NCBI GenBank assembly: GCA_903908715.1
Contig: CAIVSY010000115.1
Coordinates: forward strand, 35 to 64,034
Origin: an uncultured bacterium
GTDB taxonomy: Bacteria; Verrucomicrobiota; Kiritimatiellia; CAIKKV01; CAITUY01
Length of the DNA stretch: 64,000 nt
Reading direction: 5' to 3'
In this document: piece after piece, positions 8 through 58,381 of the stretch
Layout of the letters: each line of letters starts with the position of its first letter
Numbering within the stretch: position 1 is the stretch's first letter
The notes under the pieces: model-generated
Databases searched by the model: none
Told to the model about the DNA's origin: nothing
What the model saw: the letters and a program-made list of their open reading frames with translations, nothing else
Program-made: the position numbers and the translations under genes

Positions 8-1009
8 GTGAAGGACACTGTCGGATCCGTGAAATCCGTGGCGATCACCGGGACTGGATCCTATGTTCCGGAACGCGTCCTGACGAATGCCGATCTCGAG
101 AAGATGGTGGAGACCACGGACGAATGGATTGTGACCCGCAGCGGGATCCGTGAGCGGCATATCGCACGTCCCGATGAGGCGACTTCGGACATGGCGGCGG
201 AGGCTTCGCGCCGTGCCCTGGCGAACGCCGGCGTGGCGGCCGAGGATGTCGACCTGATCATCGTGGCCACGATCACGCCCGACATGGTCTTCCCGAGTAC
301 GGCCTGCTTTGTGCAGAACCTGATCGGTGCGAAGAACGCCACGTGCTTTGATCTGGAAGCCGCCTGCTCGGGCTTCCTGTATGCGATGAACGTCGCCAGC
401 CAGTTTATCCGCACCGGAGCGGCCCGTACGGCTCTGGTGATCGGGGCTGAAAAGCTCAGTTGTGTGACCGATTGGCAGGACCGCACAACCTGCGTGCTTT
501 TCGGGGATGGCGCGGGCGCGGTGGTCATACAGGCCAGTGATGCCCCCCGCGGGTTCCTTGCCACGGTGACCGGCTCGGATGGCGCTTTAACGGATCTACT
601 CAAGATTCCTGGCGGCGGAAGCCGGAACCCGACCTCCCTCGAAACGATCGAGAAACGCATGCATTACATGCAGATGGTCGGCAAGGAAGTCTTCAAGAAC
701 GCGGTGCGCAGCATGGGTGATGCGGCTCGTAAAGCATTGGAACAGAGCGGATTGACGTTGAATGACGTGGCATGCGTGGTGCCGCACCAGGCGAACATCC
801 GCATTGTCGAGGCCATTCGCGAACGCCTGGAGGTGGGGCCGGACAAGTTTTACGTCAATCTGGACCGTTTCGGGAACATGTCGGCAGCCTCAATCCCGGT
901 GGCCTTGGATGAAGCCATCCGTGTCGGCAGGATCAAGCGGGGCGACGTGGTTGTGATGGTGGCCTTCGGGGGTGGATTCACCTGGGGGGCTTCCGTGGTA
1001 CGCATGTAG
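8..1009 (+). CDS. fabH: 3-oxoacyl-ACP synthase III (FabH); GTG start at window edge, may be slightly truncated or extended
   Basis: 333-aa ORF. Motifs AITGTGSYVPERVLTNADLEKMVETTDEWIVTRSGIRERHIA and the C-terminal GGGFTWGA are typical of the KAS III family. Heads a fab operon. Confidence 0.9.
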   Translation: MKDTVGSVKSVAITGTGSYVPERVLTNADLEKMVETTDEWIVTRSGIRERHIARPDEATSDMAAEASRRALANAGVAAEDVDLIIVATITPDMVFPSTACFVQNLIGAKNATCFDLEAACSGFLYAMNVASQFIRTGAARTALVIGAEKLSCVTDWQDRTTCVLFGDGAGAVVIQASDAPRGFLATVTGSDGALTDLLKIPGGGSRNPTSLETIEKRMHYMQMVGKEVFKNAVRSMGDAARKALEQSGLTLNDVACVVPHQANIRIVEAIRERLEVGPDKFYVNLDRFGNMSAASIPVALDEAIRVGRIKRGDVVVMVAFGGGFTWGASVVRM

Positions 1010-1057
1010 GGAGGACGTAAGAAGGCCGGTAAGGTGTAGGGGAATAGAGGAATAGGG

Positions 1058-1096
1058 TTCAGGTGTCAGGTTTCAGGAGAATAACTGACACCTGAA
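1058..1096. promoter_or_regulatory. Perfect 12-bp inverted repeat (ttcaggtgtcag/ctgacacctgaa) with a 15-nt loop in the fabH-fabD spacer, followed by tandem CTGAAA/CTGGAA-type short repeats up to about 1140
   Basis: Read directly: arms at 1058-1069 and 1085-1096 are exact reverse complements. Local GC is lower than the flanking sequence. Confidence 0.4.
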
Positions 1097-1159
1097 AGCT
1101 GAAACCCGAAACCTGGAATCTGAACCCTGGAAGCTGAAATTGGATCAGGAGGACAAAGC

Positions 1160-2089
1160 ATGAAGAAAACAGCCGTTGTATTTGCCGGACAAGGTGCGCA
1201 GGCGGTTGGAATGGGTAAGGACCTTGTGGCGGCCCATGCCGAATGCAAGGATCTGTTTGACCGCGCGAGTGCGGTGCTGGGATTCGATCTTGCCCGTCTT
1301 TGCGCCGAGGGTCCCATCGAGGAGATCACGCGGTCCGACAATTGCCAGCCGGCAATTTTCGTGACGAGTGCGGCCTGTTTCACCGCTTTGAGGAAATTGC
1401 ACCCCGGTTTCGCAGCTTCCGGATTTGCCGGGTTGAGCCTTGGGGAGTGGACGGCGTTGTGGGCGGGCGGCGTGCTGTCGTTCGAGGACGCGGTCAAGGT
1501 GTTGAAGGTGCGCGGCAAGGCCATGCAGGAAGCCTGCGAGGAGCGGCAGGGCGGGATGGTCAGCGTGATGGGGCTGGCGTTGCCTGAACTGGAGAAGGTG
1601 TGCGCGGCGGCGGGCGTGCAGATGGCCAACATCAATTCGCCCGAGCAGATCGTGCTTTCGGGTGACAAGGCGAAGATTGCCGAGGCCGAGAAGCTGGCAC
1701 AGGCGGCGGGTGCGAAGAAGACGGTGGTGCTGCCCGTGGCCGGGGCGTTCCATTCCCCCCTGATGGCGTCGGCGGGCGCGAAACTGGAGCAGGTTCTCAA
1801 GGAAGTGTCCATCCAGGCGCCGGCGGTGCCTGTGGTCTCGAACGTGACCGGCAAGCCGCACGGGACGCCGGACGAGATCAGGGCGTTGATGGTGCGCCAG
1901 GTGACCTCCTCGGTGCAGTGGGTGGCCAGCATCGAGTGGTTCCGGCAGAATGGTGTTACGGACTATGTCGAATGCGGGCCGGGCAAGGTCCTGGCCGGCC
2001 TGATCAAGCGGATTGACAAGGATGCCGCGGCCGTGAGCATCGGGGATGTGGCGACCCTCGACAAGGCGGTGGCTGGGTTGAAGGGATAA
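1160..2089 (+). CDS. fabD: Malonyl-CoA:ACP transacylase (FabD)
   Basis: 309 aa. Active-site GLSLGEW motif, and fab operon context between fabH and fabG. RBS AGGAGGA upstream. Confidence 0.9.
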
Positions 2090-2114
2090 CAAGGGTTCTA
2101 CAAGGAGGCGCAAG

Positions 2115-2861
2115 ATGGGACAGATGGATGGGAAGGTGGCACTGGTAACGGGGGCGGCACGAGGGATCGGGCAGTCCATTGCCAGGAAGCTGGCGGAGGC
2201 GGGTTGTGATGTGGCGCTTTGCGATCTCAAGGCCGAGTGGCTGGCCGAGACGGCGGGACTGGTCGAGGCGGCGGGCCGCAAGGTGAAGTGCTTCGAGGCG
2301 GATGTGAGCCAGGCGGCGGCGGTGGATGCCGTGGTCAATGGCGTCATGGAAGCCTTCGGGAAGCTGGATGTCCTGGTCAACAACGCCGGGATCACCAAGG
2401 ACACACTGATGATCCGCATGTCCGAGCAGGACTGGGATGCGGTCCTGGATGTGAACCTCAAAGGTACGTTCCTGTTTACCAAGGCGGCGGCCCGGCCGAT
2501 GATGAAGCAGCGGTCCGGCGCGATCGTCAACGTGGCCTCAATTATTGGCTTGATCGGAAACGCCGGGCAGTGTAATTACGCTGCCTCAAAGGCCGGAGTG
2601 ATTGCCGTGACCAAGTCGGCGGCGAAGGAACTGGCCTCGCGTAACGTGAGGGTTAACGCGGTGGCGCCGGGATTCATCCAGACCCGGATGACCGACGCGT
2701 TGCCTGAAGAGGTGCGTAAGAAGATGTTGGATGCCATTCCGATGGGGCGGTTTGGGCAGCCTGATGACGTGGCCGACGTGGTGTTGTTCCTGGCGGGCAA
2801 TGCTTCCTCGTACATGACAGGGCAGGTGCTGACGGTCTGCGGTGGCATGGTGATGCAGTAA
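2115..2861 (+). CDS. fabG: 3-oxoacyl-ACP reductase (FabG), SDR family
   Basis: 248 aa. N-terminal TGAARGIG Rossmann motif and NNAGIT. YxxxK-type catalytic region (NYAASKAG). Confidence 0.9.
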
Positions 2862-2887
2862 GCAACAGCGTAAAGGAGGATAGGAAA

Positions 2888-3127
2888 ATGGCATTGGAAG
2901 ATAAAGTCAGGGATATCATTGTCGAGCAGTTGGGCGTGAACGCGGAGCAGGTGACCCGTGAGGCGTCCTTCATCGAGGATTTGGGCGCTGATTCGCTGGA
3001 TACAGTGGAACTGGTCATGGCGTTTGAAGAGGAATTCGGCGCCGAGATTCCGGACGAGGATGCCGAGAAGCTGACGAACGTCGGCGCGGTGATCGATTAT
3101 CTGAAGAGCAAGGGCTTGGGAGCCTGA
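2888..3127 (+). CDS. acpP: Acyl carrier protein
   Basis: 79 aa. Canonical phosphopantetheine site [21 protein letters not shown]. Confidence 0.95.
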
Positions 3128-3146
3128 GTTCGGAAGGTTTCTTGAA

Positions 3147-3174
3147 GCGGGGAGATGGCAACATCTCCCCGCGT
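3147..3174 (+). terminator. Intrinsic terminator or attenuator hairpin after acpP (11-bp perfect stem gcggggagatg/catctccccgc, GCAA loop, then GTTTGTATTG)
   Basis: Read directly from the sequence. acpP-fabF attenuation of this kind is common. Confidence 0.55.
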
Positions 3175-3213
3175 TTGTATTGACTTCGTCGCATTATACC
3201 TGGAAACGAGGAA

Positions 3214-4458
3214 ATGAGCATGAGCAGACGCAGAGTGGTAGTCACCGGTTTAGGGGTTGTTTCGCCTCTCGGATGCGATATCAACGTTTTCTGGCAGCGA
3301 CTTTGCGCGGGCACATCGGGGATCGGCAGGATCACCCGGTTTGATGCGTCGGCCATGGCTACGCAGATCGCGGCTGAAGTCAAGGAATTCGAAATCGACA
3401 AGTTTATTCCCAAGAAGGAACAGCGGCGCATGGACCCGTTCTGCCACTATGCGGTGGCTGCGGGCAAGCTGGCCATGCAGGATTCCGGGATCCAGATGAG
3501 CGCCGAGAATCCCGAGCGCGTCGGATGTATGGTGGGCTCGGGTGTGGGCGGCTTGATTACAATGGAAGATCAGCATTCCGTGCTGATCCAGAAGGGCCCG
3601 GATCGCTGTTCTCCTTTCATGATTCCCCAGATGATCGTCAACATGGCGTCCGGGCTGATTGCCATCGAACACGGGATGAAGGGACCGAATTACTGCGTGG
3701 TTTCGGCCTGCGCGAGCGGTGCCCATTCGATTGGCGAGGCGATCCGCCAGATCCAGTACGGGGAGGCGGATGTGATGGTGGCGGGCGGGACCGAAGCGGT
3801 GGTATGCCCCCTCGGCATCGCGGGCTTCTCGGCCATGCGGGCGATGAGTACCCGTAATGACGACCCCGCACGCGCAAGCCGTCCGTTTGACAAGGATCGG
3901 GATGGTTTTGTCATGGGTGAAGGCGCGGGGATCATTGTCATGGAGGAATATGATCGCGCGGTCAAGCGCGGGGCCCGGATCTATTGTGAACTGGCCGGTT
4001 ATGGCGCGACCTGTGATGCCAATCACATCACGGCTCCGGCGCCGGGCGGCGAAGGCGCGGCCCGGGCCATGTCCAAGGCGATCCGTGATGCCGGCCTGAC
4101 CCCTGACGTCATCGACTACGTCAATGCCCACGGAACCAGCACGCCGTTGAACGACAAGAACGAGACGGCGGCCATCAAGGCGGCGTTGGGCGAGCAAGCC
4201 AGGAAGGTGATGGTCAGCTCGACCAAATCCATGACGGGACATCTTCTCGGGGCGGCGGGCGGCATTGAGACGGTCATTTGCGCCCTGGCGATCAGCAGGG
4301 GCGTGGTGCCGGGTACAATGAACTACACGACTCCGGACCCGGATTGCGATCTGGATTATATTCCGAACGCGGCACGGGAGGTTAAGATACGCGCGTGCCT
4401 GAACAATTCGCTGGGCTTTGGCGGGCATAACTGCTCGCTCCTGATCAAGGCGGTCTGA
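3214..4458 (+). CDS. fabF: 3-oxoacyl-ACP synthase II (FabF)
   Basis: 414 aa. Active-site region CVVSACASGAHSIGEA, and the HGTSTPLND and GHLLGAAG motifs of KAS I/II. Follows acpP. Confidence 0.9.
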   Translation: MSMSRRRVVVTGLGVVSPLGCDINVFWQRLCAGTSGIGRITRFDASAMATQIAAEVKEFEIDKFIPKKEQRRMDPFCHYAVAAGKLAMQDSGIQMSAENPERVGCMVGSGVGGLITMEDQHSVLIQKGPDRCSPFMIPQMIVNMASGLIAIEHGMKGPNYCVVSACASGAHSIGEAIRQIQYGEADVMVAGGTEAVVCPLGIAGFSAMRAMSTRNDDPARASRPFDKDRDGFVMGEGAGIIVMEEYDRAVKRGARIYCELAGYGATCDANHITAPAPGGEGAARAMSKAIRDAGLTPDVIDYVNAHGTSTPLNDKNETAAIKAALGEQARKVMVSSTKSMTGHLLGAAGGIETVICALAISRGVVPGTMNYTTPDPDCDLDYIPNAAREVKIRACLNNSLGFGGHNCSLLIKAV

Positions 4459-4690: not shown

Positions 4691-7600
4691 ATGCAGTGTG
4701 TCGCAAGAAAGTCCGCATTCCTGTCACTTGTCCTGATCCTTGCCGCTTGTCTGCCGCTTGCGGTCGGGGCCGGCGCCAATGATGCCAAGGCGCTGGACGA
4801 CTATAACTTCGCGGTTTGGCTTTACAACAGCGGCAAGTATGCTTTGGCGGCGGAGTCGTATGCCGCATTTCTCCGGAACTATCCGGATCATGATCGCAAG
4901 TTTGAAGCGCATTTCGGTCTGGCTCAGTCGTGGTTCCATGCGGATGCATTTGAGAAGGCGGCGGGTGAATATGAAAAGGTGCGGACGGGCAAGCCGGATT
5001 TTACGCAGTCCGCCGAAGTCTGGTTCCAGCTTGGGCAGAGCTATGTGGCTCTCGGCCGGTTCCAGGAGGCCCTGGATCTGTTTGCGCAAATGCGCGAGAA
5101 ATACGCAGGGCACTACCTGGCTGACTGGGCGCTGGCCCGTCAGGCGGCTTGCCAGGTCAGCCTGGAGAAATACCCGGAGGCCGAAGCCCTGCTGAAGCCG
5201 TTTGTGGAGAAGTATCCCGACCCGAAAGCGGCGGAGACCAAGGCCATGCTCCGGAAACTCGAGGAGGCCGGAATCAAGGCGGGGGATGCCTTCCTGGGCC
5301 TGATGGAAAGAAGCGCTTTCCATCTGGCTTTTGCGCAGTTCAACCAGAACCGGTTTGGGGATGCGCAGAAGTCCTTTGAGCGATTCCTGGACAAGTATCC
5401 ACGCAGTGATCTGGCGGAAGAGGCGGGGTTCCGTCTGGCGCAGGCCCTCTACCGGCAGGGTGCCTATGCCAAGGCGGCAGCCGGCTACGAGGCGGTGGCC
5501 GCAGGCAGCGGAGCGTTTGCGGAGCCTGCCGCCTATGAACGCGGACTGGCCTTCTACAAGGCGGGGAACCTGAAGGAAGCCTCGGCGGCTTTCGGGCAGA
5601 TGGCAGAGCGCTTTCCGCAGAGTGCGCAATCCGGAAAGGCTCGTCTATATGCCGGAACAGCCCTGTTCGAGGCGGGAGATTTCGCGGCAGCCATCGCGCT
5701 TCTGGGGCCCTTGGCGAAGGAAGCGAAGGAGCCTTCCGGCGAGGCGGCCTACTGGGTTGCCATGAGTTTACTCAGGCTGAACAAGGCCGAGGAGGCGGAA
5801 GCAGCTTTTCAGGCGGCTCTGCGTGATTTTCCGAAATCCGGTGTGGCGGGTGACATGCGTCTGGGCCTGGCGGATGCCTGCCTGGCGCGGGACAAGTTTC
5901 AGGAGGCCGCCGCGGCGTTCCAGGCGTATGCCGCGGACTACCCCGAGAGCGAGCCGGCGGCCCGCGCCCTGTATTCCGCGTGTGCCGCCCTGCACCGGGC
6001 GGACAAGTTTACCGAGTCCGAAACCGCTTGCCGGCGTTTTCTCGACAAGTACAAGGGGCATGAACTGCTGCCCCAGGTTCTTTTCCTCAGCGGGGAGAAC
6101 CGGTTCCTCCTGAAGCAATACTCTGAAGCGGCGGAGCGATACGAGGCTTTCCTTGCCCTGGCTGGACAGGCGGCGGACCGGGTGGCCCGCACCCAATACC
6201 GGATGGCATGGGTACATCACTACGCCAAGAAGAACCTGGAGGCGTTGAATCGCCTCCAGAAGGTTGACCGCAAGGCGGCCGGGGCCGCGATCGCAGCGGA
6301 ATCGGAGTATCTGGCGGGGATTTGCCGATTCGGAATGGAGCAGTATGATGAGGCCGTACAGTCCCTGCGCGCCTACCTTGATTCGCCTGACCACGGGCGG
6401 TTCGGCGATGATGCCCTGCTGAAGATTGCCCTGGCGTTCATGCGGCTCAACCGGAAGGTCGATGCGGCGAAGCATCTGGAGCGCTTTCTCCGCGAATATC
6501 CGAAGAGTGAGCTTCTGCCGCAGGTCCAGTACCAGATAGCCGAGTGCTATTACGACCAGAAGGCGTACGAAAAGGCCGCGGAGGCCTACTCGCGGTTGAC
6601 CGGGTTGGCGGAGACCAACACGCTGGTTCCCTATGCCCTGTTCGGGATCGGGATGTGCCATCTTGAACGGGAGCAGTGGGCTGCAGCGGTCGCCGCGTTT
6701 GAACAGGTTGTCCGCCAGTATCCGCAATCCGAGGTGGCTGCCCAGTCGTATTATCGCAAGGCTTGGAGCCTGATCCAACTCCGGAAGTGGGTGGAAGCCG
6801 AGGAGGCCGCGATGAAAGTCCGCACATTGTTCCCCCGGCATGAGCTTGCGCGGGCCGCCCTGATGGCGGCCGGCACTTGCCGTCAGGAACAGAAAAAATG
6901 GGAGGAAGCCGCGGCGGCCTTCAAGGCTGTGGCGGAAGAGTATCCCGCAGCGGAGGATCTGGCGCGGGTGCTGTATGAGCAGGCGTGGTCCTGGAGGCAG
7001 GCCGGCAAGGATGAACAGGCCCTTCAGTCGTTCCGTGTCCTCGCGGAAAAATGTCCCGCGGACCCGCTGGCAGCCGATGCCTGCTTCTATCTTGGGGAGG
7101 CCCGCTACAAGATCGCGCTGGAAGCGGCGGCGGCGGAAAAGCCGGAAGGACGAAATCGCCGGCTTCGCGATGCCCTGGAACTGTATGGCAAGGCGTTGGC
7201 GGTTACCAAGGATCAGCGCCTGGGCGACAAGGTTCTCTTCCGCATGGGGTGGAGCCACTGGCTGATGGACGAGTATGGCAAGGCGGCGGAAATGTTTGAC
7301 CGGATGACCCGGGAATTTCCGGACAGCGAACTCCATCTGGATGCCTTGTTGCAGGCGGGTCAGGCGTACGCCAAGGAAGGGCGCACCGAGGAGGCTGTCG
7401 AACGGTTCCGCCGGTTCAGCACGGACAAGCGGGCGGCGTCCCACGAACTCCTGCCGGATGCCTGCCTGGGTCTGGCCAACTGCCTGATCATCCTCGACCG
7501 GCATGCGGAGGCGGTGGAGCCGCTGGAGACGGTTCTCAAGAGCAGCCAGGAAGACCCCGTGCTGATCCAGGCGAACTTCCTGCTGGGGAAAGCCCGCTTC

Positions 7601-7930
7601 AACTTGCGGAAATATGATGCGGCGGAAGCCTGTTTCCAGGAGGTTACCCGGCGGACCAAATCGGAAACGGGGGCGGAGGCGCAGTTCTTCATCGGACAGG
7701 TTGCGCAGGCGAAGAATGACTTCCGGGCCGCCATCCTGGCGTACCTGAGGGTGATTGCCCTGTATGGCGCCTATCCCGAATGGGTCGCGGGAGCGCTGTT
7801 CGAGACCGGCAAGTGCCAGGAGGCGCTGGGCGAAAAGGCCGAGGCCGGAAAGTCGTACGACGAGATACTTCGGAACTTCAAGGGGACGAAGTGGGCCAAA
7901 CCTGCGGCGGAACGGCGTGGAAAAATATGA
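4691..7930 (+). CDS. Very large TPR-repeat lipoprotein (CpoB/YbgF-like TPR architecture, 1079 aa); first gene of the ExbB-ExbD-giant protein cluster
   Basis: Signal peptide with lipobox ILAAC. Dozens of 34-aa TPR-like units (for example AEVWFQLGQSYVALGRFQEALDLFAQM). RBS AAGGGGAA upstream. Confidence 0.7.
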   Translation: MQCVARKSAFLSLVLILAACLPLAVGAGANDAKALDDYNFAVWLYNSGKYALAAESYAAFLRNYPDHDRKFEAHFGLAQSWFHADAFEKAAGEYEKVRTGKPDFTQSAEVWFQLGQSYVALGRFQEALDLFAQMREKYAGHYLADWALARQAACQVSLEKYPEAEALLKPFVEKYPDPKAAETKAMLRKLEEAGIKAGDAFLGLMERSAFHLAFAQFNQNRFGDAQKSFERFLDKYPRSDLAEEAGFRLAQALYRQGAYAKAAAGYEAVAAGSGAFAEPAAYERGLAFYKAGNLKEASAAFGQMAERFPQSAQSGKARLYAGTALFEAGDFAAAIALLGPLAKEAKEPSGEAAYWVAMSLLRLNKAEEAEAAFQAALRDFPKSGVAGDMRLGLADACLARDKFQEAAAAFQAYAADYPESEPAARALYSACAALHRADKFTESETACRRFLDKYKGHELLPQVLFLSGENRFLLKQYSEAAERYEAFLALAGQAADRVARTQYRMAWVHHYAKKNLEALNRLQKVDRKAAGAAIAAESEYLAGICRFGMEQYDEAVQSLRAYLDSPDHGRFGDDALLKIALAFMRLNRKVDAAKHLERFLREYPKSELLPQVQYQIAECYYDQKAYEKAAEAYSRLTGLAETNTLVPYALFGIGMCHLEREQWAAAVAAFEQVVRQYPQSEVAAQSYYRKAWSLIQLRKWVEAEEAAMKVRTLFPRHELARAALMAAGTCRQEQKKWEEAAAAFKAVAEEYPAAEDLARVLYEQAWSWRQAGKDEQALQSFRVLAEKCPADPLAADACFYLGEARYKIALEAAAAEKPEGRNRRLRDALELYGKALAVTKDQRLGDKVLFRMGWSHWLMDEYGKAAEMFDRMTREFPDSELHLDALLQAGQAYAKEGRTEEAVERFRRFSTDKRAASHELLPDACLGLANCLIILDRHAEAVEPLETVLKSSQEDPVLIQANFLLGKARFNLRKYDAAEACFQEVTRRTKSETGAEAQFFIGQVAQAKNDFRAAILAYLRVIALYGAYPEWVAGALFETGKCQEALGEKAEAGKSYDEILRNFKGTKWAKPAAERRGKI

Positions 7931-7982: not shown

Positions 7983-8789
7983 ATGAGTAAACTCTGTGTG
8001 ATGGTGTTGTGTATCTTGGGAATTCTGATCCCGGTTCTGGCGGAGGGACAGGCGGTTGTTCCTTCTGTTGCACCGGAACGAGGGCATTCGCAACAGGCTG
8101 GGGCTGTTGCCGGGTCTACGGCTGCGGAACGGGATCAGCCGGTTCTGCCGGGCGGCGGTTTGACTCTGATTCAACTTCTGCAAAAAGGCGGCGTGGTGAT
8201 GTATCCCCTTTATCTCTGCAGCATCCTTGTTCTTGGTTTTGCGGTGGAGCGGCTCCTGACCCTGCGGCGCCGGAACGTGGCACCCGAGGGACTTCTCGGG
8301 GAATTGAGATCGATCCTGGATCGGCCGGAACGGACTGTGGACGCTGGCCAGGTGATGGCCCTGTGTGAAGGCCAGCGCAACCCGCTGGCCCGGATCGTAT
8401 CCGCAGGAGCGCGCCGGGCGAACCGGACCATTCTGGAGGTGGAAAAGGCCATGGAGGACACCTCCGCCCGGGAAGTGGTCCGGCTCCAGCGCAATAACCG
8501 GGTTTTCTCGGGCGTTGCCAGTGTGGCGCCGCTTCTTGGATTGCTGGGAACCGCCACTGGGATCATCCGTGCGTTCATGACTGTGGCGGCCATGCAGGAT
8601 GCCTTGGGAAAGAGCGAGTTGCTCGCGGGAGGTATCTACGAAGCCCTGGTCTCGACCGCCGCCGGGCTCAGCATCGCCATTGTCGCCCTCGTGCTCTACC
8701 TGTTCTTTCAGGAGCGGGTGGAGAAGCTGGTGTCGGAAATGGATGATGCCGCAACCGAATTGTCAGAACGGTTGGCGGTCAGGACCTGA
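7983..8789 (+). CDS. MotA/TolQ/ExbB-family proton-channel stator protein with N-terminal signal-like extension
   Basis: 268 aa with three transmembrane helices. The conserved C-terminal region LLGLLGTATGIIRAFMTVAA...GGIYEALVSTAAGLSIAIVALVLY matches ExbB/TolQ. Confidence 0.8.
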   Translation: MSKLCVMVLCILGILIPVLAEGQAVVPSVAPERGHSQQAGAVAGSTAAERDQPVLPGGGLTLIQLLQKGGVVMYPLYLCSILVLGFAVERLLTLRRRNVAPEGLLGELRSILDRPERTVDAGQVMALCEGQRNPLARIVSAGARRANRTILEVEKAMEDTSAREVVRLQRNNRVFSGVASVAPLLGLLGTATGIIRAFMTVAAMQDALGKSELLAGGIYEALVSTAAGLSIAIVALVLYLFFQERVEKLVSEMDDAATELSERLAVRT

Positions 8790-8801: not shown

Positions 8802-9215
8802 ATGAGAACCAAGACCCTTGCCCACGATTTTTATGGCATCAACGTGATCCCGATGATCGACACGATGATGTTCCTGCTTGTCTTTTTCCTGATGGCCACG
8901 AAATTCGCGGATATTGAACGGGATGTCCAGGTCAAGCCGCCGGACAGTCATAATGCCCGGCCCGTGATGGCCATACCTCGCGAGTTGATCATCAATGTGG
9001 GGCAGGATGGACGGCTTTCGATTGCCGGCCAGCCGCGGCAGCCCGCGGATGTCGAGCGGCTGATTGCCCAGGCCAGGGAGGGCAATCCCGACCAGGCGGT
9101 GATTATCCGGGGGGATCGGCGTGCAGTCCTGCAACATGCCGTGGACGTGCTGGATCTCTGCGAGAAGCACGGGGTCAGGCATACCTTCCTCACGACCCGG
9201 CAGGAGGACCTGTAA
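8802..9215 (+). CDS. ExbD/TolR-family biopolymer transport protein
   Basis: 137 aa. N-terminal INVIPMIDTMMFLLVFFLMAT transmembrane segment, and periplasmic domain ending in DQAVIIRGDRRAVLQHAVDVLDLC. Immediately follows ExbB. Confidence 0.8.
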   Translation: MRTKTLAHDFYGINVIPMIDTMMFLLVFFLMATKFADIERDVQVKPPDSHNARPVMAIPRELIINVGQDGRLSIAGQPRQPADVERLIAQAREGNPDQAVIIRGDRRAVLQHAVDVLDLCEKHGVRHTFLTTRQEDL

Positions 9216-9245
9216 GGCGTCCGGCGGAATACTCGAGGGAATGCA

Positions 9246-12200
9246 TTGAACGATCATTCGCGAGCAGTGAGGCATCGTCTGTGGCTCTGGTTCCCGTTCG
9301 CCGTGGGACTCATGGCGGCCGTGGCGGTCAGCCTGCTGGCGCCTGTCAGCTGGACCGGATACTGGCGTTATCTCACGCTGCGTTTCGGCTGGCAGATCGT
9401 GGCGGCTATCCTGACGGCGGCAGTTCTGCTTCTGTTTTCCATGCTGGTGGCCGGACGGCGGAAGGAATCGGGGTTCCTTGCGCTGGGGATGTTCATCAGC
9501 ATTCTGATTCACATGATGATGGCTTCCATGTTTGGCGGCTATATCCTCCAGGACGGGGCGGCCCCCAGTGACGGCGATGAAAACGCGTTGGCCGTTTCCT
9601 CCGGTGTACCGCAATGGACCGAGAGTCAGCTGAGCGAGGAGGTCCGGAGCGAGTTCACCGCGGTAACGCCGCCCGATTTGCGCGAGATGGATGCCGGGCG
9701 GAATGATCAGGCGGGTTCTGCCGCAGGCGGGTTCCGTCGCTTCCGCGCGAATCCGGAGGCCCTGCAGTCCCATGACCCGGATCCCGGTGAACGGGTGCAG
9801 GCCGTAATGGCCTCCGCGGGCAAGGCGAAAATTGAGGATCGTCTGGCTGCCTCCGGGGAGCGGCAGGCGGAGGTCGAGCGGGCGGTGGTGGTGAAACTGA
9901 AGCAGGGCTCATTACCGTCCGGAGCCCGGCCGACTCAAGAGGTTCCGCGTGAGTTGCCGGATGCGGAGCCGTTACGCGGGGAGGACAGGATTCCTTCCCT
10001 GGACCGGGAGCGGCCCCAGGTGGCCGGAGGGATGGATGTGCAAAGGGCGCCAGTCCGCACAGAGGCATCCGTGGATGGCAGCCGGCGGATGATACAGCGT
10101 GAGGACGAAATCCTCCGTGCGGTTCCCGGAAGACAAACGATCGAAGCCCTGGATGTGCGCGCGGAGGCGATGACTGCGGAATGGAAGGAAGCGCAGCGGA
10201 GCGGACGTGCCGCGCCTGCGTTGGAGGCCGCCTACCAGAAGGGCGAAGGGCCCGATGTGTCCGCGCCGGAGCGGGCGGTTGGCGAATTCAATCCGGATGT
10301 TTCCGCTGTGTCTGTCGCCCGCCTGGCGGATCAGGCTCCGGCATCGGGCGAGCGCCGTGTTTCTCTCGAAGGGGCTGCCGCGAAAGTGCGCGAGATCCGT
10401 GCAAGGAGCGGGGATCCGGCGGTTGTGCTGGAGGTTGCCTTGCAGCCGTTGGCCCGCGAATCGGGCCCGTCTGTTCCTGTGGCGGAAAAAACTTCCGCCG
10501 TGGCGCGCGACGTCGGGCCCGGTCGGGCCGGGCAGGGAATGGGAATGGTGGCGGGCCCCGCAGGATCCGTTCGTGCCCAGGTGTCCTTGCAGGGGAGGGC
10601 GGCCGGGGAAAGGAAACTCACAGGAACCTCTTCTTTATCCGGCACCACCTCTGCCAGGGAATGGGCCGGGGTCGAAGATCGTTTACAGGCCGCGGGTCGC
10701 CGCACAACTCAAGGCGCAATGACGGCGGTTGGTGGCCGTGCCGAGGCGGTTGCATCCGTTGCCGGTCAGGGCATGGACGGGATATCTGGCGTCTCCGCCC
10801 GTCCTATTGCGGATGTCAAAGTCGACAAGCGCGGAATGGCCCCGGAAGGGATCGATTCCGGTTCAGGACGGGTTATGGCTGGAGGCGCATCGATGGAATG
10901 GGCGCTTGGGAATGCGGGCATCGGCGAGGAGACAGGGAGTGATGCCGGACTGGATATTGCTTCCGTTCAGGCCGTGTTTGCCCCGGTTCCGGAGGACCGC
11001 CAGGGCGAAGCCGGAATGCCGGCGGGGCGTGGGAGTTCGAAGGGATTAACGGGATTCGGGAGCGTGATGTCGGCGGATGCGCCAGTTCGGGTTTCGGATC
11101 GGGCGACAACAGGAACTGTTCAGTCAGCCAGTGCCGGGGCCTGGCAGGAATGGGGTACGGGGGAAGAAAAGGCTGGCGGAAGTTTCGGAAGCCATGAGGC
11201 GGGGAGCGCCTTTGCGCGGCAGGATGTTGAAGGCGCCTTCCTGGGAGTAACGGATCCGGGCGGATCCCTTGCGGGTGGATTCGAGCGGAGCGAGGTCAAG
11301 GGTCTTGCGGGAGGCCGGATGTTTGTCGAGGAGGCTGTCGCGGGCTCGGCGGTCAGCGTGGTGACGCGCGAAAAGGCAGGACACGGCACTGCGGCGCTGG
11401 CGGGCTCTATGCGGGGGATCACGTCCACGGATTCAGGCGCTGCCGAGGCGGGACGTGTGGGGGCAACCGGTGCAAGAGAGGCTGTGCCGATGTCGGTTGG
11501 CAAGGCTGCTTCGGGTTTCCCGGGTTCAGCGGATCACGGCAAGCCGGGTGGTGGCGGGAAAGGGGCGACCGAAATGCCGGTTACTGGAACGACGGATAGA
11601 CGGGGCGTCAGTCTTGCGGATGGGACCGGGGTGGCGATTCCGCATCGTGCGGTGCGGGGTGATGGGGTGGTGCCTGAAGGGGCTCTCGATGGGAGGACAT
11701 TCGGATTGCACGGCCAGGATCAGGGAACAGCATTTGGCACGGTGACGAAGAGTGAGGCGGCGGCTGGGGGAGCCTTGGCTGGAACGGGAAATTCCGGGTC
11801 CCGTACCGTGAGGGCTCCGGGCGATTTTCGGGTCGACAAGGCGGGCGGCGGCATGGGCGGCGCAGGGAGTTCCCCGCGACCCGACTGGCGCGATGTGGGG
11901 TCGGCCGGCCTTTCGCTCGCGGGCGGTAAGTCACACGGGCGGTTGGATGGGGGGGGTGCCGCAAGCGGGGTGGCGGACCGGATCGCGGCATCCGGCCGGG
12001 GTTCAGGAGGCGCGGGCACAGCCAGGGTGCTCATCACGGATGAGCTTTCCTCGGTCCCCGCGAAAGTGATCCAGAAGGCGATATACACCCTGCGTGCGCC
12101 GGAACGCCGCAAGGAGATTGCGCGTGAATTCGGCGGGTCGGAAAAGACCGAGCAGGCTGTGGAATCGGCGCTGGTATGGCTCGCGCAGTCGCAGAGCGAG

Positions 12201-13121
12201 GACGGGCGCTGGGATGTGGATGGTTTCAGGACCTTATCGCGATGCGGCGGACCTGGGGACCGGGCTGATGAAGATGTGGCCCTGACGGGACTGTGCCTGC
12301 TTTCGTATCTTGGCGCCGGGTACACGCACGTCAAAGGGGAGCACAAGGAAACTGTTCGCAAGGCCCTCAACTGGTTGATCGACGGGCAGAAGCCGGACGG
12401 AGACCTGCAGCGGGACGGCCAGATGTACGGGCAGGCGATGGCCACGGCCGCGCTGTGCGAATCCTACTCCATGACGGGCGACAAACGGTTGCTCGGGCCG
12501 ATTGAGAGGGCGGTGGCGTTCATTGCGCGGGCGCAGAATCCGGGTGCCGGCTGGCGATACGAGCCGCGGAAGGATTCGGATACATCCGTGACCGGGTGGC
12601 AGGTCCTGGCATTGAAGAGCGCGATGATTGCCGGCGTCCGGATTGATCCGGAGCATTTCCAGTGGGTTGAGGAATGGTTGGATGCGGTGCGGCGCGGCAG
12701 GGAAGGCGGACTTTATGCCTACATGCCCGGCCAGGGGGCCACGCCCACCATGACAGCGGAAGGCTGGTTCTGCCAGTTGATGATGCAGGAGAAGACCCGC
12801 ATGCGGGGGCAGGGGGAAACCATTCCGTATCTCATGGAACATCTGCCGGAGTGGTCCTCCCAGGAGAACGGTGTGAATCTGTATTTCTGGTACTACAGCA
12901 CGCTGGCCCTGTATATGTCCGGTGCGCCGGAATTCTCGGTGTGGAACAAGGCGCTGGTGGAGGCCCTGTTATCCGGGCAGGTCCAGCGGGGACCCGCCAA
13001 AGGCAGTTGGGATCCGGTGTGCGTGCTGGGCGCCCGAGGGGGCCGGATCTACATGACAGCCACGGCAGCGCTTTGCCTCGAGGTGTACTATCGCTATCTG
13101 CCCTTCTATAAGCAGAGGTAG
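9246..13121 (+). CDS. Giant membrane-anchored protein (1291 aa). Architecture: 3 N-terminal transmembrane helices, about 750 aa of Gly/Ala/Ser/Glu/Arg-rich low-complexity linker, then a C-terminal prenyltransferase/squalene-cyclase-like alpha/alpha-toroid repeat domain. TTG start.
   Basis: Uninterrupted 3.9-kb ORF in frame with clear transmembrane segments. C-terminal QW-type motifs LVWLAQSQSEDGRW, NWLIDGQKPDGDL and FIARAQNPGAGW. Directly downstream of ExbB/ExbD. Confidence 0.7.
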   Translation: MNDHSRAVRHRLWLWFPFAVGLMAAVAVSLLAPVSWTGYWRYLTLRFGWQIVAAILTAAVLLLFSMLVAGRRKESGFLALGMFISILIHMMMASMFGGYILQDGAAPSDGDENALAVSSGVPQWTESQLSEEVRSEFTAVTPPDLREMDAGRNDQAGSAAGGFRRFRANPEALQSHDPDPGERVQAVMASAGKAKIEDRLAASGERQAEVERAVVVKLKQGSLPSGARPTQEVPRELPDAEPLRGEDRIPSLDRERPQVAGGMDVQRAPVRTEASVDGSRRMIQREDEILRAVPGRQTIEALDVRAEAMTAEWKEAQRSGRAAPALEAAYQKGEGPDVSAPERAVGEFNPDVSAVSVARLADQAPASGERRVSLEGAAAKVREIRARSGDPAVVLEVALQPLARESGPSVPVAEKTSAVARDVGPGRAGQGMGMVAGPAGSVRAQVSLQGRAAGERKLTGTSSLSGTTSAREWAGVEDRLQAAGRRTTQGAMTAVGGRAEAVASVAGQGMDGISGVSARPIADVKVDKRGMAPEGIDSGSGRVMAGGASMEWALGNAGIGEETGSDAGLDIASVQAVFAPVPEDRQGEAGMPAGRGSSKGLTGFGSVMSADAPVRVSDRATTGTVQSASAGAWQEWGTGEEKAGGSFGSHEAGSAFARQDVEGAFLGVTDPGGSLAGGFERSEVKGLAGGRMFVEEAVAGSAVSVVTREKAGHGTAALAGSMRGITSTDSGAAEAGRVGATGAREAVPMSVGKAASGFPGSADHGKPGGGGKGATEMPVTGTTDRRGVSLADGTGVAIPHRAVRGDGVVPEGALDGRTFGLHGQDQGTAFGTVTKSEAAAGGALAGTGNSGSRTVRAPGDFRVDKAGGGMGGAGSSPRPDWRDVGSAGLSLAGGKSHGRLDGGGAASGVADRIAASGRGSGGAGTARVLITDELSSVPAKVIQKAIYTLRAPERRKEIAREFGGSEKTEQAVESALVWLAQSQSEDGRWDVDGFRTLSRCGGPGDRADEDVALTGLCLLSYLGAGYTHVKGEHKETVRKALNWLIDGQKPDGDLQRDGQMYGQAMATAALCESYSMTGDKRLLGPIERAVAFIARAQNPGAGWRYEPRKDSDTSVTGWQVLALKSAMIAGVRIDPEHFQWVEEWLDAVRRGREGGLYAYMPGQGATPTMTAEGWFCQLMMQEKTRMRGQGETIPYLMEHLPEWSSQENGVNLYFWYYSTLALYMSGAPEFSVWNKALVEALLSGQVQRGPAKGSWDPVCVLGARGGRIYMTATAALCLEVYYRYLPFYKQR

Positions 13122-13273: not shown

Positions 13274-14494
13274 ATGACCTGTTCACAGAAAGACAAGGAT
13301 CGCATTCGGGCTCTCGCGGAAAAGGTTGCGGCAATGGCCAGGGAACCCAGAATGGCCGCCATCAAGAAGCGTTGGGCGGATGTCAATGCCCTGCGCAAGC
13401 CCGACCGGGCACCGGTCTGGTGCAGGCCGGTGGGATGCTGGAAGGAGATCATTACAGACGATAGGCTCGAGTGCACGGATCCGTCATTGCGGCCGCTTGA
13501 GTATCGGTTCCTGCAGACGATTCACAAGAGGGATATCGACGATGATGAGCCCGTCGAGGATTATCTGGATATCGGGGCGGTTTTCAAGGTGGACCCCGAG
13601 AATGTCTGGGGCGTCACGGTCGGCCGGCACACCACCAGCGAGAAAGGCGGCGCGTGGGGGTATGACCCGCCGCTGAAGACGGTGGACGACCTGAGCAAGC
13701 TGCGGATCCCCGCGTTCGTCTATTGCAAAGACGAGACGCAGGCGCTCAAGACCCGTCTGGAGGATCTGCTGGGCGACATCCTGCCGGTGAAAGTGACGGT
13801 GGGTCCGCTTCTCGGTGCGACGCTGGGAATGGCCGCGGCGGACTTGCGCGGGCTGGAGCAGATGATGATGGACATGATTGCCGAACCCGAGCGGATGCAC
13901 CGTTTAATGGCTTATTTGCGCGACTCGACACTGGCTTCGATGGACTATATCGAAAGTACCGGGTTGATCACGCCGGGCAACAGCGGTCCCATGACCTGCA
14001 GTGATCCCATCGGCGAAACCGGAGTGAATGCGCGCCTGACCTGCAGAAATCTCTGGTGCATGGCGAATTCGCAGGAATTCGACCAGGTCTCGCCCGCCAT
14101 GTGGGAGGAATTCTGTCTGAACTACCAGAGGCCGATCTTCGCGAGATTCGGGCTTGTTGGATACGGGTGTTGTGAGAACCTGACCCACAAGATCGACGGG
14201 GTGCTATCGATCCCCAACCTGCGGATCTTTGTCTGCAGTGCGTGGACGGATCTGGACACCGTCCTGGAAAAAGCAGGCCGGGGCTACTGTATCATGTGGC
14301 GCCAGAAGGCCAGCGATGTGGTCTTCCCCGACTCTGCCACCCAGATCAAGGAGGACTTGATGAAAGGCGCCCGGAAGCTTCAGGGATACCGCTACCAGAT
14401 TGTACTCCGGGAGCTGGAGACCCTTGCCGGGCACCCGAACCGCTTGCACGAATGGACTCGCTACGCCAAGGAGGCGGCCGCCCAATACTCGTAA
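13274..14494 (+). CDS. Uroporphyrinogen decarboxylase (URO-D)-family protein, paralog 1 (MtaA/CmuA-like fold; substrate unknown)
   Basis: 406 aa. Global resemblance to the URO-D/methylcobamide:CoM methyltransferase family, and a similar domain layout to the downstream neighbour. Confidence 0.6.
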   Translation: MTCSQKDKDRIRALAEKVAAMAREPRMAAIKKRWADVNALRKPDRAPVWCRPVGCWKEIITDDRLECTDPSLRPLEYRFLQTIHKRDIDDDEPVEDYLDIGAVFKVDPENVWGVTVGRHTTSEKGGAWGYDPPLKTVDDLSKLRIPAFVYCKDETQALKTRLEDLLGDILPVKVTVGPLLGATLGMAAADLRGLEQMMMDMIAEPERMHRLMAYLRDSTLASMDYIESTGLITPGNSGPMTCSDPIGETGVNARLTCRNLWCMANSQEFDQVSPAMWEEFCLNYQRPIFARFGLVGYGCCENLTHKIDGVLSIPNLRIFVCSAWTDLDTVLEKAGRGYCIMWRQKASDVVFPDSATQIKEDLMKGARKLQGYRYQIVLRELETLAGHPNRLHEWTRYAKEAAAQYS

Positions 14495-14558: not shown

Positions 14559-15608
14559 ATGACTCAACGTGAGAATATTCTCAAGGCGATCCGGTTTGAA
14601 AAGCCCGACTTTATCCCCATGTCCTTCCAAATCAGTGCGGCATCCTGGAATCATTATGATCCGCAGGCGCTGCAGGACCTGATGGAAGCGCATCGTCTCC
14701 TCTTTCCGGATTTCATTCGTCAGGCAACCGTTACCCCGTATTACGGTCTCAATCAGCGCAAGGATGAGCCTTATACCGACGCATGGGGATGCGTGTGGTC
14801 CACCAGCGAGGATGGGATTACAGGGTCGGTCCATGGACATCCGTTGTCCTCCTGGGATTCGTTTTCCAGCTACACGCCGCCCGATCCGGAAAAGACGGAT
14901 GGAACCTATCCGGTCGACTGGCAGGGTCTTGGGTCCCATGTTCGTCAACAGAAGGTGGCGGGGCAGCTGGTCTGCGGCGGGCTTCCTCACGGGCATACGT
15001 TTCTCCGCCTCCAGGATATTCGCGGATACGAAAATCTGATCCTCGACATGATGGATGAAAGGCCTGAATTGTGGAAACTCGTCAGCATGGTCGAGGAATT
15101 CAACCACCACTTCGTGCTCAAGTGGCTGGAACTGGAGCCGGACATGATGAGTTATCCGGAGGACCTGGGCATGCAGGTCGGTCCCATGCTCAGCCCGGAA
15201 AGCTTCCGCAGGTTCATCCGGCCGGTTTATGAGAAACTGATGAAGCCAGCCCGTGAACGCGGCTGCATTGTCCATATGCATTCCGACGGTGACATCCGCA
15301 CGCTGGTCGATGACCTCATCGGAGGGGGTGTGGAGGTCATCAACCTGCAGGACCTTGTCAATGGGATCGATTGGATTGAAAAGAAGTTTGCGGGGCGCAC
15401 CTGCATTGACCTGGATATTGACCGGCAGGCCATCACGGCGCGGGGCACGCCTCAACAGATCGACCGTCTGATCCGCGAGGAAGTCACGAGGCTGGGGAGC
15501 CGGGAGGGCGGCCTGATGATGGTCTACGGGTTGTATCCGGGCGTGCCTCTGGAGAACGTGGAAGCTCTCATGGACGCCATGGAGAAGTACGCAGGGCATT
15601 TTGCCTGA
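14559..15608 (+). CDS. Uroporphyrinogen decarboxylase (URO-D)-family protein, paralog 2
   Basis: About 350 aa from the internal ATG (MTQRENILKAIRFEKPDFIPM). The upstream part of the annotated ORF overlaps the previous gene. URO-D family features. Confidence 0.6.
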   Translation: MTQRENILKAIRFEKPDFIPMSFQISAASWNHYDPQALQDLMEAHRLLFPDFIRQATVTPYYGLNQRKDEPYTDAWGCVWSTSEDGITGSVHGHPLSSWDSFSSYTPPDPEKTDGTYPVDWQGLGSHVRQQKVAGQLVCGGLPHGHTFLRLQDIRGYENLILDMMDERPELWKLVSMVEEFNHHFVLKWLELEPDMMSYPEDLGMQVGPMLSPESFRRFIRPVYEKLMKPARERGCIVHMHSDGDIRTLVDDLIGGGVEVINLQDLVNGIDWIEKKFAGRTCIDLDIDRQAITARGTPQQIDRLIREEVTRLGSREGGLMMVYGLYPGVPLENVEALMDAMEKYAGHFA

Positions 15609-15686: not shown

Positions 15687-16778
15687 CTACTCCCGTTCTA
15701 CCGGAATGGCGGGGCGGCGTATGGAGATGACGATCCGCCGGTTTGCTGTATTGCCGTTATCCAGGTCGGCTTTTTCCTTGGGCTGACTAAACCCGAGGCC
15801 TGCGGTTTCCATGCGGTTTCTGGAGATCTTCCATTTCCCGCCGGCGAGGTAGTCCCGTACGGCTTCCGCCCGTTTACGGGTGAGTTCGAGGGCTTCCTTC
15901 TCGCTGTCATTCCGGCGCTGGTCGCAATGACCCTCGATCAGGGCTGTTGAGGCGGGGTGATCCTTCAGCATCCTGCCGATTACATCAAGCTGTTCAAAAT
16001 ACTGGGCCTCGACAGCGGTATTCCTGCCGGTGAACTCGATGTACAATTCGTGCCGATCCACAATCTGGGCGGGTGGCGTTTCGGGTGCGGCAAGGGGTTC
16101 CGCCCGGGGGGTGCCGGCAGACGGCGGTTCAGGTGCGGCGACAGGGATGATGGTCACGGGCACTTGCGCTGTCCCGCGGTGGCCGGGAGTCCAGGCAAGT
16201 CCGCAGTCGATTCGCGAGTTGGACTCGCTTTTTGTCACGGTGCCCGCCGCGAAATAACGGAAATCCACACGAAGCGACAGGGAGTCGGTCAGCCTTTGCA
16301 GGAGGCCGGCACCGGCGCGGGGGGTGAAGTCGAGCCCGTCGTTTTCGCCGATTTCCTCGCTGTAACGGAGAAAGCCCACGCCAGCCGACAGGTACGGATT
16401 CAGGGATTTCCCCGGCGCCAGGTAGTACAGGGCATCCACGGCGGCTCCTGCTGCCGAGGTTTCATCCTCGCCTGTGGCTTCCTGAAGGCGGTTGACCTGC
16501 AAAGGGGCCCCGGAGGAATAGTCGGTGTAGTAGTTTCCTTCCAGTGTGGGCACAAACGTGAGTGAAGCTTCAATGGAAAGCGAAGGCGACAGGGCATAAT
16601 CCAGCAGAAGGCTGGCGGTATAGGCGTCGTCCACATCCGCATCCCCTTCGGTGTCCAGCTTGCCGATTGCGGCGCTGAACCGCCAGGGGGACAGGCCGTC
16701 CCCTGCCGTGACAACGGTCGGCGCGGCCAGGATCAGGAACATGGCGATGAAAACGGTGATAGAGCGGAACAAGTTCAT
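15687..16778 (-). CDS. OmpA-family outer membrane protein (N-terminal beta-barrel plus C-terminal OmpA peptidoglycan-binding domain)
   Basis: Signal peptide. C-terminal LIEGHCDQRRNDSEKEALELTRKRAEAVRDYL...NRRIVISI is an OmpA_C motif. Confidence 0.8.
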   Translation of the reverse strand: MNLFRSITVFIAMFLILAAPTVVTAGDGLSPWRFSAAIGKLDTEGDADVDDAYTASLLLDYALSPSLSIEASLTFVPTLEGNYYTDYSSGAPLQVNRLQEATGEDETSAAGAAVDALYYLAPGKSLNPYLSAGVGFLRYSEEIGENDGLDFTPRAGAGLLQRLTDSLSLRVDFRYFAAGTVTKSESNSRIDCGLAWTPGHRGTAQVPVTIIPVAAPEPPSAGTPRAEPLAAPETPPAQIVDRHELYIEFTGRNTAVEAQYFEQLDVIGRMLKDHPASTALIEGHCDQRRNDSEKEALELTRKRAEAVRDYLAGGKWKISRNRMETAGLGFSQPKEKADLDNGNTANRRIVISIRRPAIPVERE

Positions 16779-58283: not shown

Positions 58284-58381
58284 GGGTCTTTCCGTGTGGG
58301 TATGAAGGTAGAATACCGGAGCGGGAATCCCTCATGCAAAGGGAATTGTTATCTGGCGCAAAATCCGTATGATGGCTTGCC

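Follow-up and report, generated by a model that had tools for sequence, protein, structure and literature searches.

A toroid-headed candidate force transducer encoded behind a second ExbB–ExbD-type motor in an uncultured Kiritimatiellia bacterium

We analyzed a 64,000-nucleotide stretch of DNA (hereafter the window) from an uncultured bacterium of the Kiritimatiellia (GenBank assembly GCA_903908715.1, contig CAIVSY010000115.1, positions 35 to 64,034 of the forward strand), and focused on a large open reading frame (ORF) on its plus strand (9246..13121, 1,291 aa, TTG start). Its product combines three N-terminal transmembrane (TM) helices, a linker of about 830 residues and a C-terminal α/α-toroid, and its gene directly follows genes for ExbB- and ExbD-type motor subunits. 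We favor the interpretation that the ORF encodes the TonB/TolA-like force-transducing subunit of a second ExbB–ExbD-type motor powered by the proton-motive force (pmf), with the toroid as a ligand-binding head. To our knowledge, no route by which Gram-negative bacteria deliver energy from the inner membrane to the outer envelope is well understood apart from TonB and TolA. A preliminary description of the ORF had compared its spacer with those of TonB and TolA in length only and had missed the motor synteny, the S-x3-H motif in the third TM helix and the conserved module to which the gene belongs. The novelty here would be that both the head and the anchor of a TonB/TolA-like transducer are new, and its interest lies at the level of the family.

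A conserved motor module ends with the ORF

The module comprises four genes on the same strand, in the order TPR, exbB, exbD and ORF, separated by gaps of 52, 12 and 30 nt. The first gene (4691..7930, plus strand) encodes a secreted multi-TPR protein of 1,079 aa (Pfam TPR_6 and TPR_16) with a signal peptide, a possible lipobox (LAAC, Cys20) and about 12 YbgF/CpoB-like TPR units (TIGR02795 tol_pal_ybgF, 12 stretches, E 8e-108). The second (7983..8789, plus strand) encodes an ExbB/TolQ-type proton-channel subunit of 268 aa (PF01618 MotA_ExbB, E 1.6e-28; TIGR02796 tolQ, 2e-22, under cutoff), which keeps the TM Thr motifs and has LGLLGTATG and ALVSTAAGL as TM motifs. The third (8802..9215, plus strand) encodes an ExbD/TolR-type subunit of 137 aa (PF02472 ExbD, E 5.6e-22) with the conserved TM aspartate, Asp20, in VIPMIDTMMFLL. 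Because the ORF comes last in the module, directly behind exbB–exbD, it occupies the position of tonB or tolA.

We scanned genomes, one for each species, for relatives of the C-terminal domain (CTD), obtained at least 592 and analyzed the best 80 loci; synteny was counted in the 65 of these whose upstream sequence spans 1.5 kb or more. ExbD is the immediate upstream neighbor of the toroid gene in 47 of the 65 loci, and ExbB (44/65) and a TPR gene of about 1,000 aa (36/65) also lie upstream. Clustering of the neighboring ORFs at 54 motor-linked loci identified only these four genes as conserved and nothing downstream. The related loci come from three phyla, Planctomycetota, Lentisphaerota and Kiritimatiellota (Pirellulales, Planctomycetaceae, Isosphaeraceae, Phycisphaerae, Kiritimatiellia and Victivallales), with the closest matches in Victivallales, at 59–63% CTD identity. 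When 1.84 billion cluster representatives (50% identity) were searched with the family profile, 9,763 matched at E ≤ 1e-30, which makes the family a very large one. Motor-linked members fall into two length classes, 596–805 and 1,070–1,589 aa, and 22 of the 49 motor-linked relatives with enough upstream sequence belong to the longer one. The protein is not unique in its size, and its gene is one family member among thousands.

Members of the family appear in databases as 'prenyltransferase/squalene oxidase repeat-containing' or 'terpene cyclase/mutase family' proteins and occasionally as 'TonB', the label given by JGI to some of them, such as P0053 and P0119. The name 'terpene cyclase/mutase family protein' is probably misleading for thousands of proteins of the Planctomycetes–Verrucomicrobia–Chlamydiae (PVC) bacteria. 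In the searchable literature on ExbD or TonB with squalene-cyclase, prenyltransferase or toroid domains in Planctomycetes we found no description of the family, which may be described elsewhere; the one relevant paper was PMC12204202.

Architectures within the family vary further. Some members carry a CarboxypepD_reg domain after the toroid (aa 1371–1452 in L011), and others (representatives P0137–P0147) reach 1,800–2,279 aa with two or three toroid-matching stretches. A paralogous subfamily of 600–790 aa lacks adjacent ExbBD genes (L022, L023, L032, L034, L046, L050, L051, L061, L073 and L075) and has a conserved PAWL(V/I)SL(L/V)xHL helix, again with the S-x3-H pattern, at aa ~200–300, followed by an xITLSxxVS strand. 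These paralogs may be transducers without a motor of their own that rely on one encoded at another locus.

The membrane anchor contains a TonB/TolA-like S-x3-H helix

The N-terminal anchor (9246..9551, plus strand; aa 1–102) has hydrophobic segments at aa 12–38, 43–72 and 74–101, and an AlphaFold2 (AF2) run on aa 1–930 places helices at 3–31, 40–69 and 73–103 with predicted local distance difference test (pLDDT) values of 63–78. Hydropathy and structure prediction therefore both bear out the three TM helices of the preliminary description. The N-terminus and the loop between TM2 and TM3 (GRRKES) are basic and the stretch after TM3 is acidic, so that, by the positive-inside rule, the anchor fits an N-in/C-out topology.

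TM3 (aa ~74–101), the last of the three helices and the one predicted to run from inside to outside, contains S84-x3-H88 (SILIH, within FISILIHMMM) following the basic cytoplasmic loop. Anchor conservation was judged from the ORFs of the retrieved homologous loci; a word-based homolog search with the N-terminal 151 aa gave no matches. An S-x3-H motif is present in the last TM helix of 41 of the 54 motor-linked relatives (for example SAVLH, SALLH, SLLVH or SLLAH), typically preceded by RWGxSxPLxKC or LSLLARC. In a His-anchored alignment, the helices of the family are in register with the TM helix of the canonical TolA encoded elsewhere in the window (ATTVH, with Ala at −4), and they are likewise in register with Escherichia coli TolA (SAVLH) and TonB (SVCIH).

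A second possible likeness lies downstream of this helix. A candidate motor-box strand, DENALAVSSG (9576..9605, plus strand; aa ~111–120), is suggested by position and pattern, with ALAVSS 24–29 residues past His88. Relatives have alternating-hydrophobic segments at an equal distance from their His (FELAV, VQVALVS, IHVRIV and VHVSLV), as does the TolA of the window (PMELIV); the corresponding strand-like segments 24–29 residues past the His are IDAVMV in E. coli TolA and ISVTMV in E. coli TonB. The single-sequence AF2 run on aa 1–930 predicted no strand at aa ~111–120. TonB and TolA make contact with their motors through two elements, the SHLS helix (S-x3-H-x6-L-x3-S), whose His is essential, and the motor box, a β-strand in a disordered segment after the TM helix (PMC12204202).

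The helices that precede TM3 differ among relatives. Members from Pirellulales have a two-helix hairpin anchor. Those from Phycisphaerales and Kiritimatiellia have TM1, a periplasmic loop that holds a PD40 (TolB-like) β-propeller of some 330 aa, TM2 and then the S-x3-H helix, and the proteins from the window and from Victivallales have the same three helices with a short loop in place of the propeller. These relatives account for the extra helices of the ORF anchor. The propeller lies at aa ~50–400 in L007, L009–L013, L016, L018, L025, L027, L039, L058, L059 and L083; in these homologs, propeller and toroid would both face the periplasm from one anchor.

The C-terminal domain is an α/α-toroid without canonical catalytic motifs

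We modeled the CTD (12033..13121, plus strand; aa 930–1291, about 360 aa) from an alignment of this segment with 99 homologs. The AF2 model is all-α with alternating toroid helices (pLDDT 90, predicted TM-score (pTM) 0.91). QxxDGxW-type motifs, which the preliminary description had noted in the last ~400 residues, are present and conserved across 100 homologs, in a domain that is somewhat shorter, at about 360 aa (aa ~930–1291). The best Foldseek matches in the PDB are the single-domain squalene–hopene cyclase (SHC)-like structures 8pak and 8paj (E 7e-7, TM-score 0.6), followed in rank by AprG, GH76 mannanases, the class II cyclase MstE and RabGGTase-β; the thioester-containing domains (TEDs) of complement C3 and C4 rank lower, and cellobiose 2-epimerase is also among the matches. 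Foldseek probability is 1.0 for many toroids, and identity to all structural matches is 9–20%. The family profile matches SHC in the PDB with an E-value of 1.8e-18 through the QW-type repeats and insect TEP1 with 1e-4. Because the Foldseek and profile matches agree, the assignment of the toroid fold is correct at the superfamily level. Structure prediction and fold search thus recovered the toroid of terpenoid cyclases and prenyltransferase β-subunits that had been proposed from the motifs, and the C3, C4 and TEP1 matches uphold the suggested kinship with the fold of thioester-containing α2-macroglobulins.

The CTD contains none of the motifs DxDD, DDxxD, CGEQ or C.EQ; in the window protein's D1008-E-D1010, only D1010 is conserved in the family (93%). 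We found no Asp/Cys/His zinc triad and no invariant Cys in the CTD, and H1028, conserved at 90%, lacks a D-x-C context. For class II terpene cyclases (SHC-like), in which DxDD is the catalytic motif, the family scores are below the curated cutoffs (PF13243, 21 bits against 26.1; TIGR01787, 26 bits against 322.7). Residues invariant in the family are E1072, W1103, Y1105, D1112, S1114, G1117, W1118, Y1213, Y1216, Y1217, W1233, R1267, E1279, Y1282 and R1283, and R1104 is conserved at 98%. The absence of DxDD, DDxxD and CGEQ, the comparison that the preliminary description had proposed for telling enzyme from binder, favors a binding module and falls short of proof.

A long, rapidly evolving linker connects anchor and toroid

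The linker (9549..12032, plus strand; aa 102–929) spans about 830 residues, so that the very long low-complexity spacer described earlier stands and its estimated length of ~750 aa does not. It is made up of a coil (aa 104–278), an E/R/A-rich region with weak helical propensity (279–404), in which AF2 gives low-confidence helices, and a G/A/S/T/V-rich coil (405–929). Its composition is 16% Gly, 16% Ala, 9% Val, 9% Arg, 9% Ser, 7% Glu, 5% Pro and 5% Leu, with no Cys and a nearly balanced charge (93 K + R against 105 D + E). Aromatic residues are indeed scarce (23, or 2.8%), as the preliminary description had it, but the near-absence of hydrophobic residues that it claimed was overstated, given the content of Val and Leu; residues F, I, L, M, W and Y together occur at 8–14 per 100. 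A search for internal repeats in the linker found none, and a Pfam scan gave no match there. In the single-sequence AF2 run, 761 of the 930 modeled residues have a pLDDT under 50, and values are about 30 across aa 405–930.

The sequence of the linker is not conserved. The alignment with a relative at 75% CTD identity ends just N-terminal of aa ~930, and the two closest genome-derived homologs, with CTDs 53–61% identical, have no alignable linker; their linkers measure 807 and 1,015 aa against 830 here. The linker sequence therefore evolves fast, and its length class is retained in the three closest genomes. Across the family, the distance from motif helix to CTD ranges from 144 to 1,028 aa; short linkers are Pro-rich (9–27% Pro) and TonB-like, and long ones are Ala/Ser/Gly-rich. 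By this measure the linker of the window protein (841 aa) is the second longest of the 41 measured; its Pro content (5%) is the lowest, and its Gly content (16%) ties for the highest. The three-part architecture is a family trait, of which the window protein is a long, Gly-rich extreme.

We consider the linker likely to be a flexible, largely unstructured tether. By a polymer-scaling estimate, the ends of ~830 disordered residues would lie ~30 nm apart when relaxed, with a contour length of ~300 nm, and the tether would therefore be long enough for a normal or an enlarged periplasm.

A model for force transduction and the evidence against it

In the model that we favor, the three TM helices would hold the protein in the inner membrane, its C-terminus outside. 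TM3 would dock through its S84/H88 face on the ExbB pentamer of an ExbB5–ExbD2-type motor, and the strand at aa ~112–120, some 25 residues past the His, would pair with the periplasmic ExbD dimer. The flexible, non-conserved tether of ~830 residues would span the periplasm, and the toroid, standing in place of TonB_C or TolA_C, would serve as a non-catalytic head that grips a ligand in the outer envelope; rotation of the motor would then pull on the target bound by the toroid. The secreted TPR protein, conserved along with the ORF, probably acts as a partner in the periplasm or outer membrane. The wealth of Trp, Tyr, Arg, Asp and Glu on the conserved surface prompts a first guess at the target of the toroid, which may be a glycan, a polymer akin to peptidoglycan or a component of the outer membrane. 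Such a make-up of Trp, Tyr, Arg and acidic residues is typical of sites that bind or process carbohydrates, which we take as a lead only.

The model draws on the operon position, the synteny across loci, the anchor motif, the motor residues kept in ExbB and ExbD, the three-part architecture, the confidently modeled toroid that lacks DxDD, DDxxD and CGEQ, the precedent of vWA-headed transducers and the 'TonB' label in JGI. Anatomy, fold, synteny, motif and family distribution are shown, and physical coupling, binding instead of catalysis and the target are proposed. Several observations weigh against this model. Coupling of the protein to the motor is suggested by synteny and a short motif, and that motif is only partly kept: the positions of Leu and Ser in SHLS are Phe (+7) and Ile (+11) in the ORF, with Leu often found at +7 in relatives. 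The anchor has three TM helices here and two or three in relatives, against one in TonB and TolA. An adjacent motor is absent from 16 of the 65 loci, some of them paralogs with the same TM motif, and one locus (L001, the P0061 locus) instead adjoins MoxR-AAA, DUF58 and TgpA-transglutaminase genes, with no motor, in a Bat-like neighborhood resembling an aerotolerance operon. In a charge–hydropathy (Uversky) plot the linker falls on the 'ordered' side, since Ala, Val and Gly are treated there as hydrophobic and the net charge is close to zero, and the AF2 disorder signal for the linker comes from a single-sequence run. The intrinsic disorder proposed in the preliminary description is likely, given the low pLDDT and the unconserved sequence, with this plot and the weakly helical aa 279–404 as caveats. 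Finally, the Glu, Asp, Arg and aromatic residues that are invariant in the toroid would equally suit the active site of an enzyme.

This last point leads to the main alternative, a membrane-tethered periplasmic enzyme with a catalytic six-hairpin toroid, whether a glycan hydrolase, lyase, epimerase or non-canonical terpenoid or lipid cyclase. The ExbBD neighborhood would then reflect co-regulation or energized positioning instead of the transmission of force to a partner that the toroid binds. Enzymes are among the Foldseek matches at TM-scores of ~0.55–0.6 (8pak/8paj, MstE, GH76 mannanases, AprG and cellobiose 2-epimerase), the invariant E1072, D1112 and E1279 and the many Trp, Tyr and Arg residues resemble carbohydrate-active sites, and relatives have weak matches to Pec_lyase (PF09492). 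Against these stand the lack of DxDD and DDxxD, a family profile that does not align to the catalytic region of SHC, the absence of any Pfam enzyme family at gathering score in the window protein and the 9–20% identity to every structural match; moreover, a TonB-like anchor and motor synteny would be superfluous for a simple tethered enzyme. We judge an enzyme unlikely on balance and keep it in play, because the invariant acidic and aromatic residues suit either role.

The gene order of the module (genes for a YbgF-like TPR protein, a TolQ-like and a TolR-like subunit and a transducer) resembles tol-pal, and in the homologs from Phycisphaerales and Kiritimatiellia the polypeptide itself includes TolB-like PD40 repeats. 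Both features would suit a reading in which the ORF is the TolA of this organism and the module a PVC version of Tol–Pal with a divergent head. However, the window also holds a canonical tol-pal cluster on its minus strand: tolQ (28326–27577), tolR (27564–27145), tolA (27148–26357; 263 aa, Pro/Lys/Glu-rich, with a TonB_C/TolA-type C-terminus), tolB (26348–25059; TIGR02800, E 4e-80) and a pal gene for a Pal-like lipoprotein (25032–24496). The ExbB of the module is 35% identical to this TolQ across 85 aa only, and its ExbD is 22% identical to this TolR. Because the window contains canonical tolQRAB-pal and the two motors are only 22–35% identical, the toroid module is a second, distinct motor system. 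Neither a pal nor a tolB gene is conserved beside the module, and once the canonical cluster had been found we rejected a replacement of Tol–Pal, which we regard as very improbable. No cpoB/ybgF gene follows pal, where tatC is found (24148–23318, minus strand); a giant YbgF-like TPR protein is encoded in the toroid module instead.

We give hardly any credence to a capture or defense protein of the α2-macroglobulin/TED type or to a Zorya-like anti-phage motor. The TED domains of C3, C4 and TEP1 do appear among the fold and profile matches, and PADLOC reports a weak match of ExbB to ZorA (E 6e-6). The ORF, however, has neither CGEQ nor macroglobulin domains, PADLOC has no match for the ORF, ExbD or the TPR protein, and the module, flanked by housekeeping fab genes, shows conservation across phyla. 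With only this weak, generic ZorA match for ExbB, a Zorya-type defense system, which combines ZorA and ZorB with ZorC/D/E effector genes, was rejected.

The start and integrity of the ORF were also considered. TTG at 9246 is the earliest in-frame start past the upstream stop, 30 nt after the stop of exbD, and it is preceded by a Shine–Dalgarno-like GAGGGA (9235–9240; 9235..9248 with the start codon, plus strand, by direct reading of the sequence), with 7 nt between the GAGG core and TTG. Two independent ENA metagenome assemblies have the identical start and 1,291-aa product as called by a gene caller, with D1134E as the single residue difference in one of them, and Victivallales genomes encode full-length relatives of 1,269 and 1,477 aa with matching architecture. 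The TTG start implied in the preliminary description is supported by the ribosome-binding-like site, by its position and by these gene calls. Because independent assemblies give the same product and start, a hidden frameshift, the possibility raised there that anchor and CTD belong to separate genes, is excluded. That the ORF is an artefact, through a frameshift fusion or as a chance open frame in DNA of 62–67% GC, where long spurious ORFs are common and several ORFs of 100–250 aa overlap the gene in other frames, has a negligible probability and is already refuted by its presence in three assemblies, by the two Victivallales relatives with the same architecture and by the conservation of both the N-terminal anchor and the CTD in the same frame.

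Possible implications for the envelope of PVC bacteria

A broader proposal, which we put forward tentatively and consider possible rather than probable, is that the module constitutes an undescribed pmf-driven trans-envelope machine that operates alongside Tol–Pal, near-universal in Planctomycetota and found also in Lentisphaerota and Kiritimatiellota, in which the toroid would grip a glycan, peptidoglycan or a component of the outer membrane and the length of the linker (144–1,028 aa) would track the width of the PVC periplasm, which is unusually variable. The cell envelope and macromolecule uptake of Planctomycetes are poorly understood, and the lineages with the module are reported to be poor in TonB-dependent receptors. 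If the proposal is correct, a possible function would be the energized uptake or handling of polysaccharides. The toroid-headed type would then be a major additional branch of transducers, with ~10,000 sequence clusters and a dominant place in Planctomycetes, and it would come with concrete parts: the H88 anchor, D20 of ExbD, a putative pocket with invariant E1072 and D1112 and a tether that varies seven-fold in length.

Genomic surroundings of the module

Directly upstream of the TPR gene lies a fatty-acid cluster, fabH-fabD-fabG-(gap, probably acpP)-fabF (8–4458, plus strand), and the junction between fabF and the TPR gene recurs in an independent assembly. Directly downstream of the ORF are two tandem URO-D-like paralogs (13274–14494 and ~14559–15608, plus strand), the first of which falls short of the Pfam gathering score and is unmatched in NCBIfam. 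An OmpA-like protein with an N-terminal β-barrel and a C-terminal OmpA peptidoglycan-binding domain is encoded 2.5 kb downstream (15687–16778, minus strand); its gene is kept in the near-identical assembly and not in other loci. Neither the URO-D-like genes nor the OmpA-like gene qualifies as a conserved downstream partner, there being none among the motor-linked loci, and both are specific to this lineage.

Elsewhere in the window, two large ORFs on the minus strand lack NCBIfam matches: one of 788 aa (50488–52854) has only a weak Pfam match to ELYS, and another of 477 aa (58349–59782) has no Pfam match either. GC skew is positive over nearly the whole window (1–64000), with the cumulative value rising from 0.1 to 7.8 apart from a brief flat stretch at 20–24 kb, and no tRNA genes were found in the 64 kb.

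Comparison with known systems

The ORF shares with TonB and TolA its place behind exbB–exbD, an S-x3-H TM helix that follows a basic cytoplasmic stretch, a candidate strand ~25 residues past the His, a long low-complexity spacer and a globular C-terminal head. It differs from them in all three parts of its architecture. Its head is a 360-aa toroid, whereas theirs is the TonB_C/TolA_C fold of roughly 90 aa, which binds its target by β-strand addition; its anchor has three TM helices rather than one; and its spacer of ~830 aa is Gly/Ala-rich, whereas theirs are Pro-rich or helical. The spacers of E. coli TonB and TolA measure roughly 100–250 aa. A Pfam and NCBIfam scan of the ORF gave no match to TonB_C or TolA, and because both this type of head and the single-pass anchor are missing, we do not file the protein as a member of the TonB or TolA family.

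With the superfamily of SHC, MstE, RabGGTase-β and TEDs, the ORF shares the six-hairpin toroid fold and the QW-type repeats, but it lacks DxDD, DDxxD, a conserved Zn triad and the thioester. Its toroid is a single domain, predicted to be periplasmic, that is fused to a TonB-like anchor. The module contains no gene for a protein prenyltransferase α-subunit, and Pfam gives no match to macroglobulin domains in the ORF.

The closest parallel is offered by the putative vWA-headed force transducers encoded behind TPR-tolQ-tolR in PVC bacteria, which were proposed as a third type in 2025 on the same logic (PMC12204202, Williams-Jones et al. 2025) in a paper that makes no mention of a toroid or cyclase-like head. 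The ORF differs from these transducers in having a toroid rather than a vWA head, in being accompanied by one tolR-like gene rather than a heterologous pair and in the length of its linker, ~830 aa against a domain II of ~100 residues (PMC12204202).

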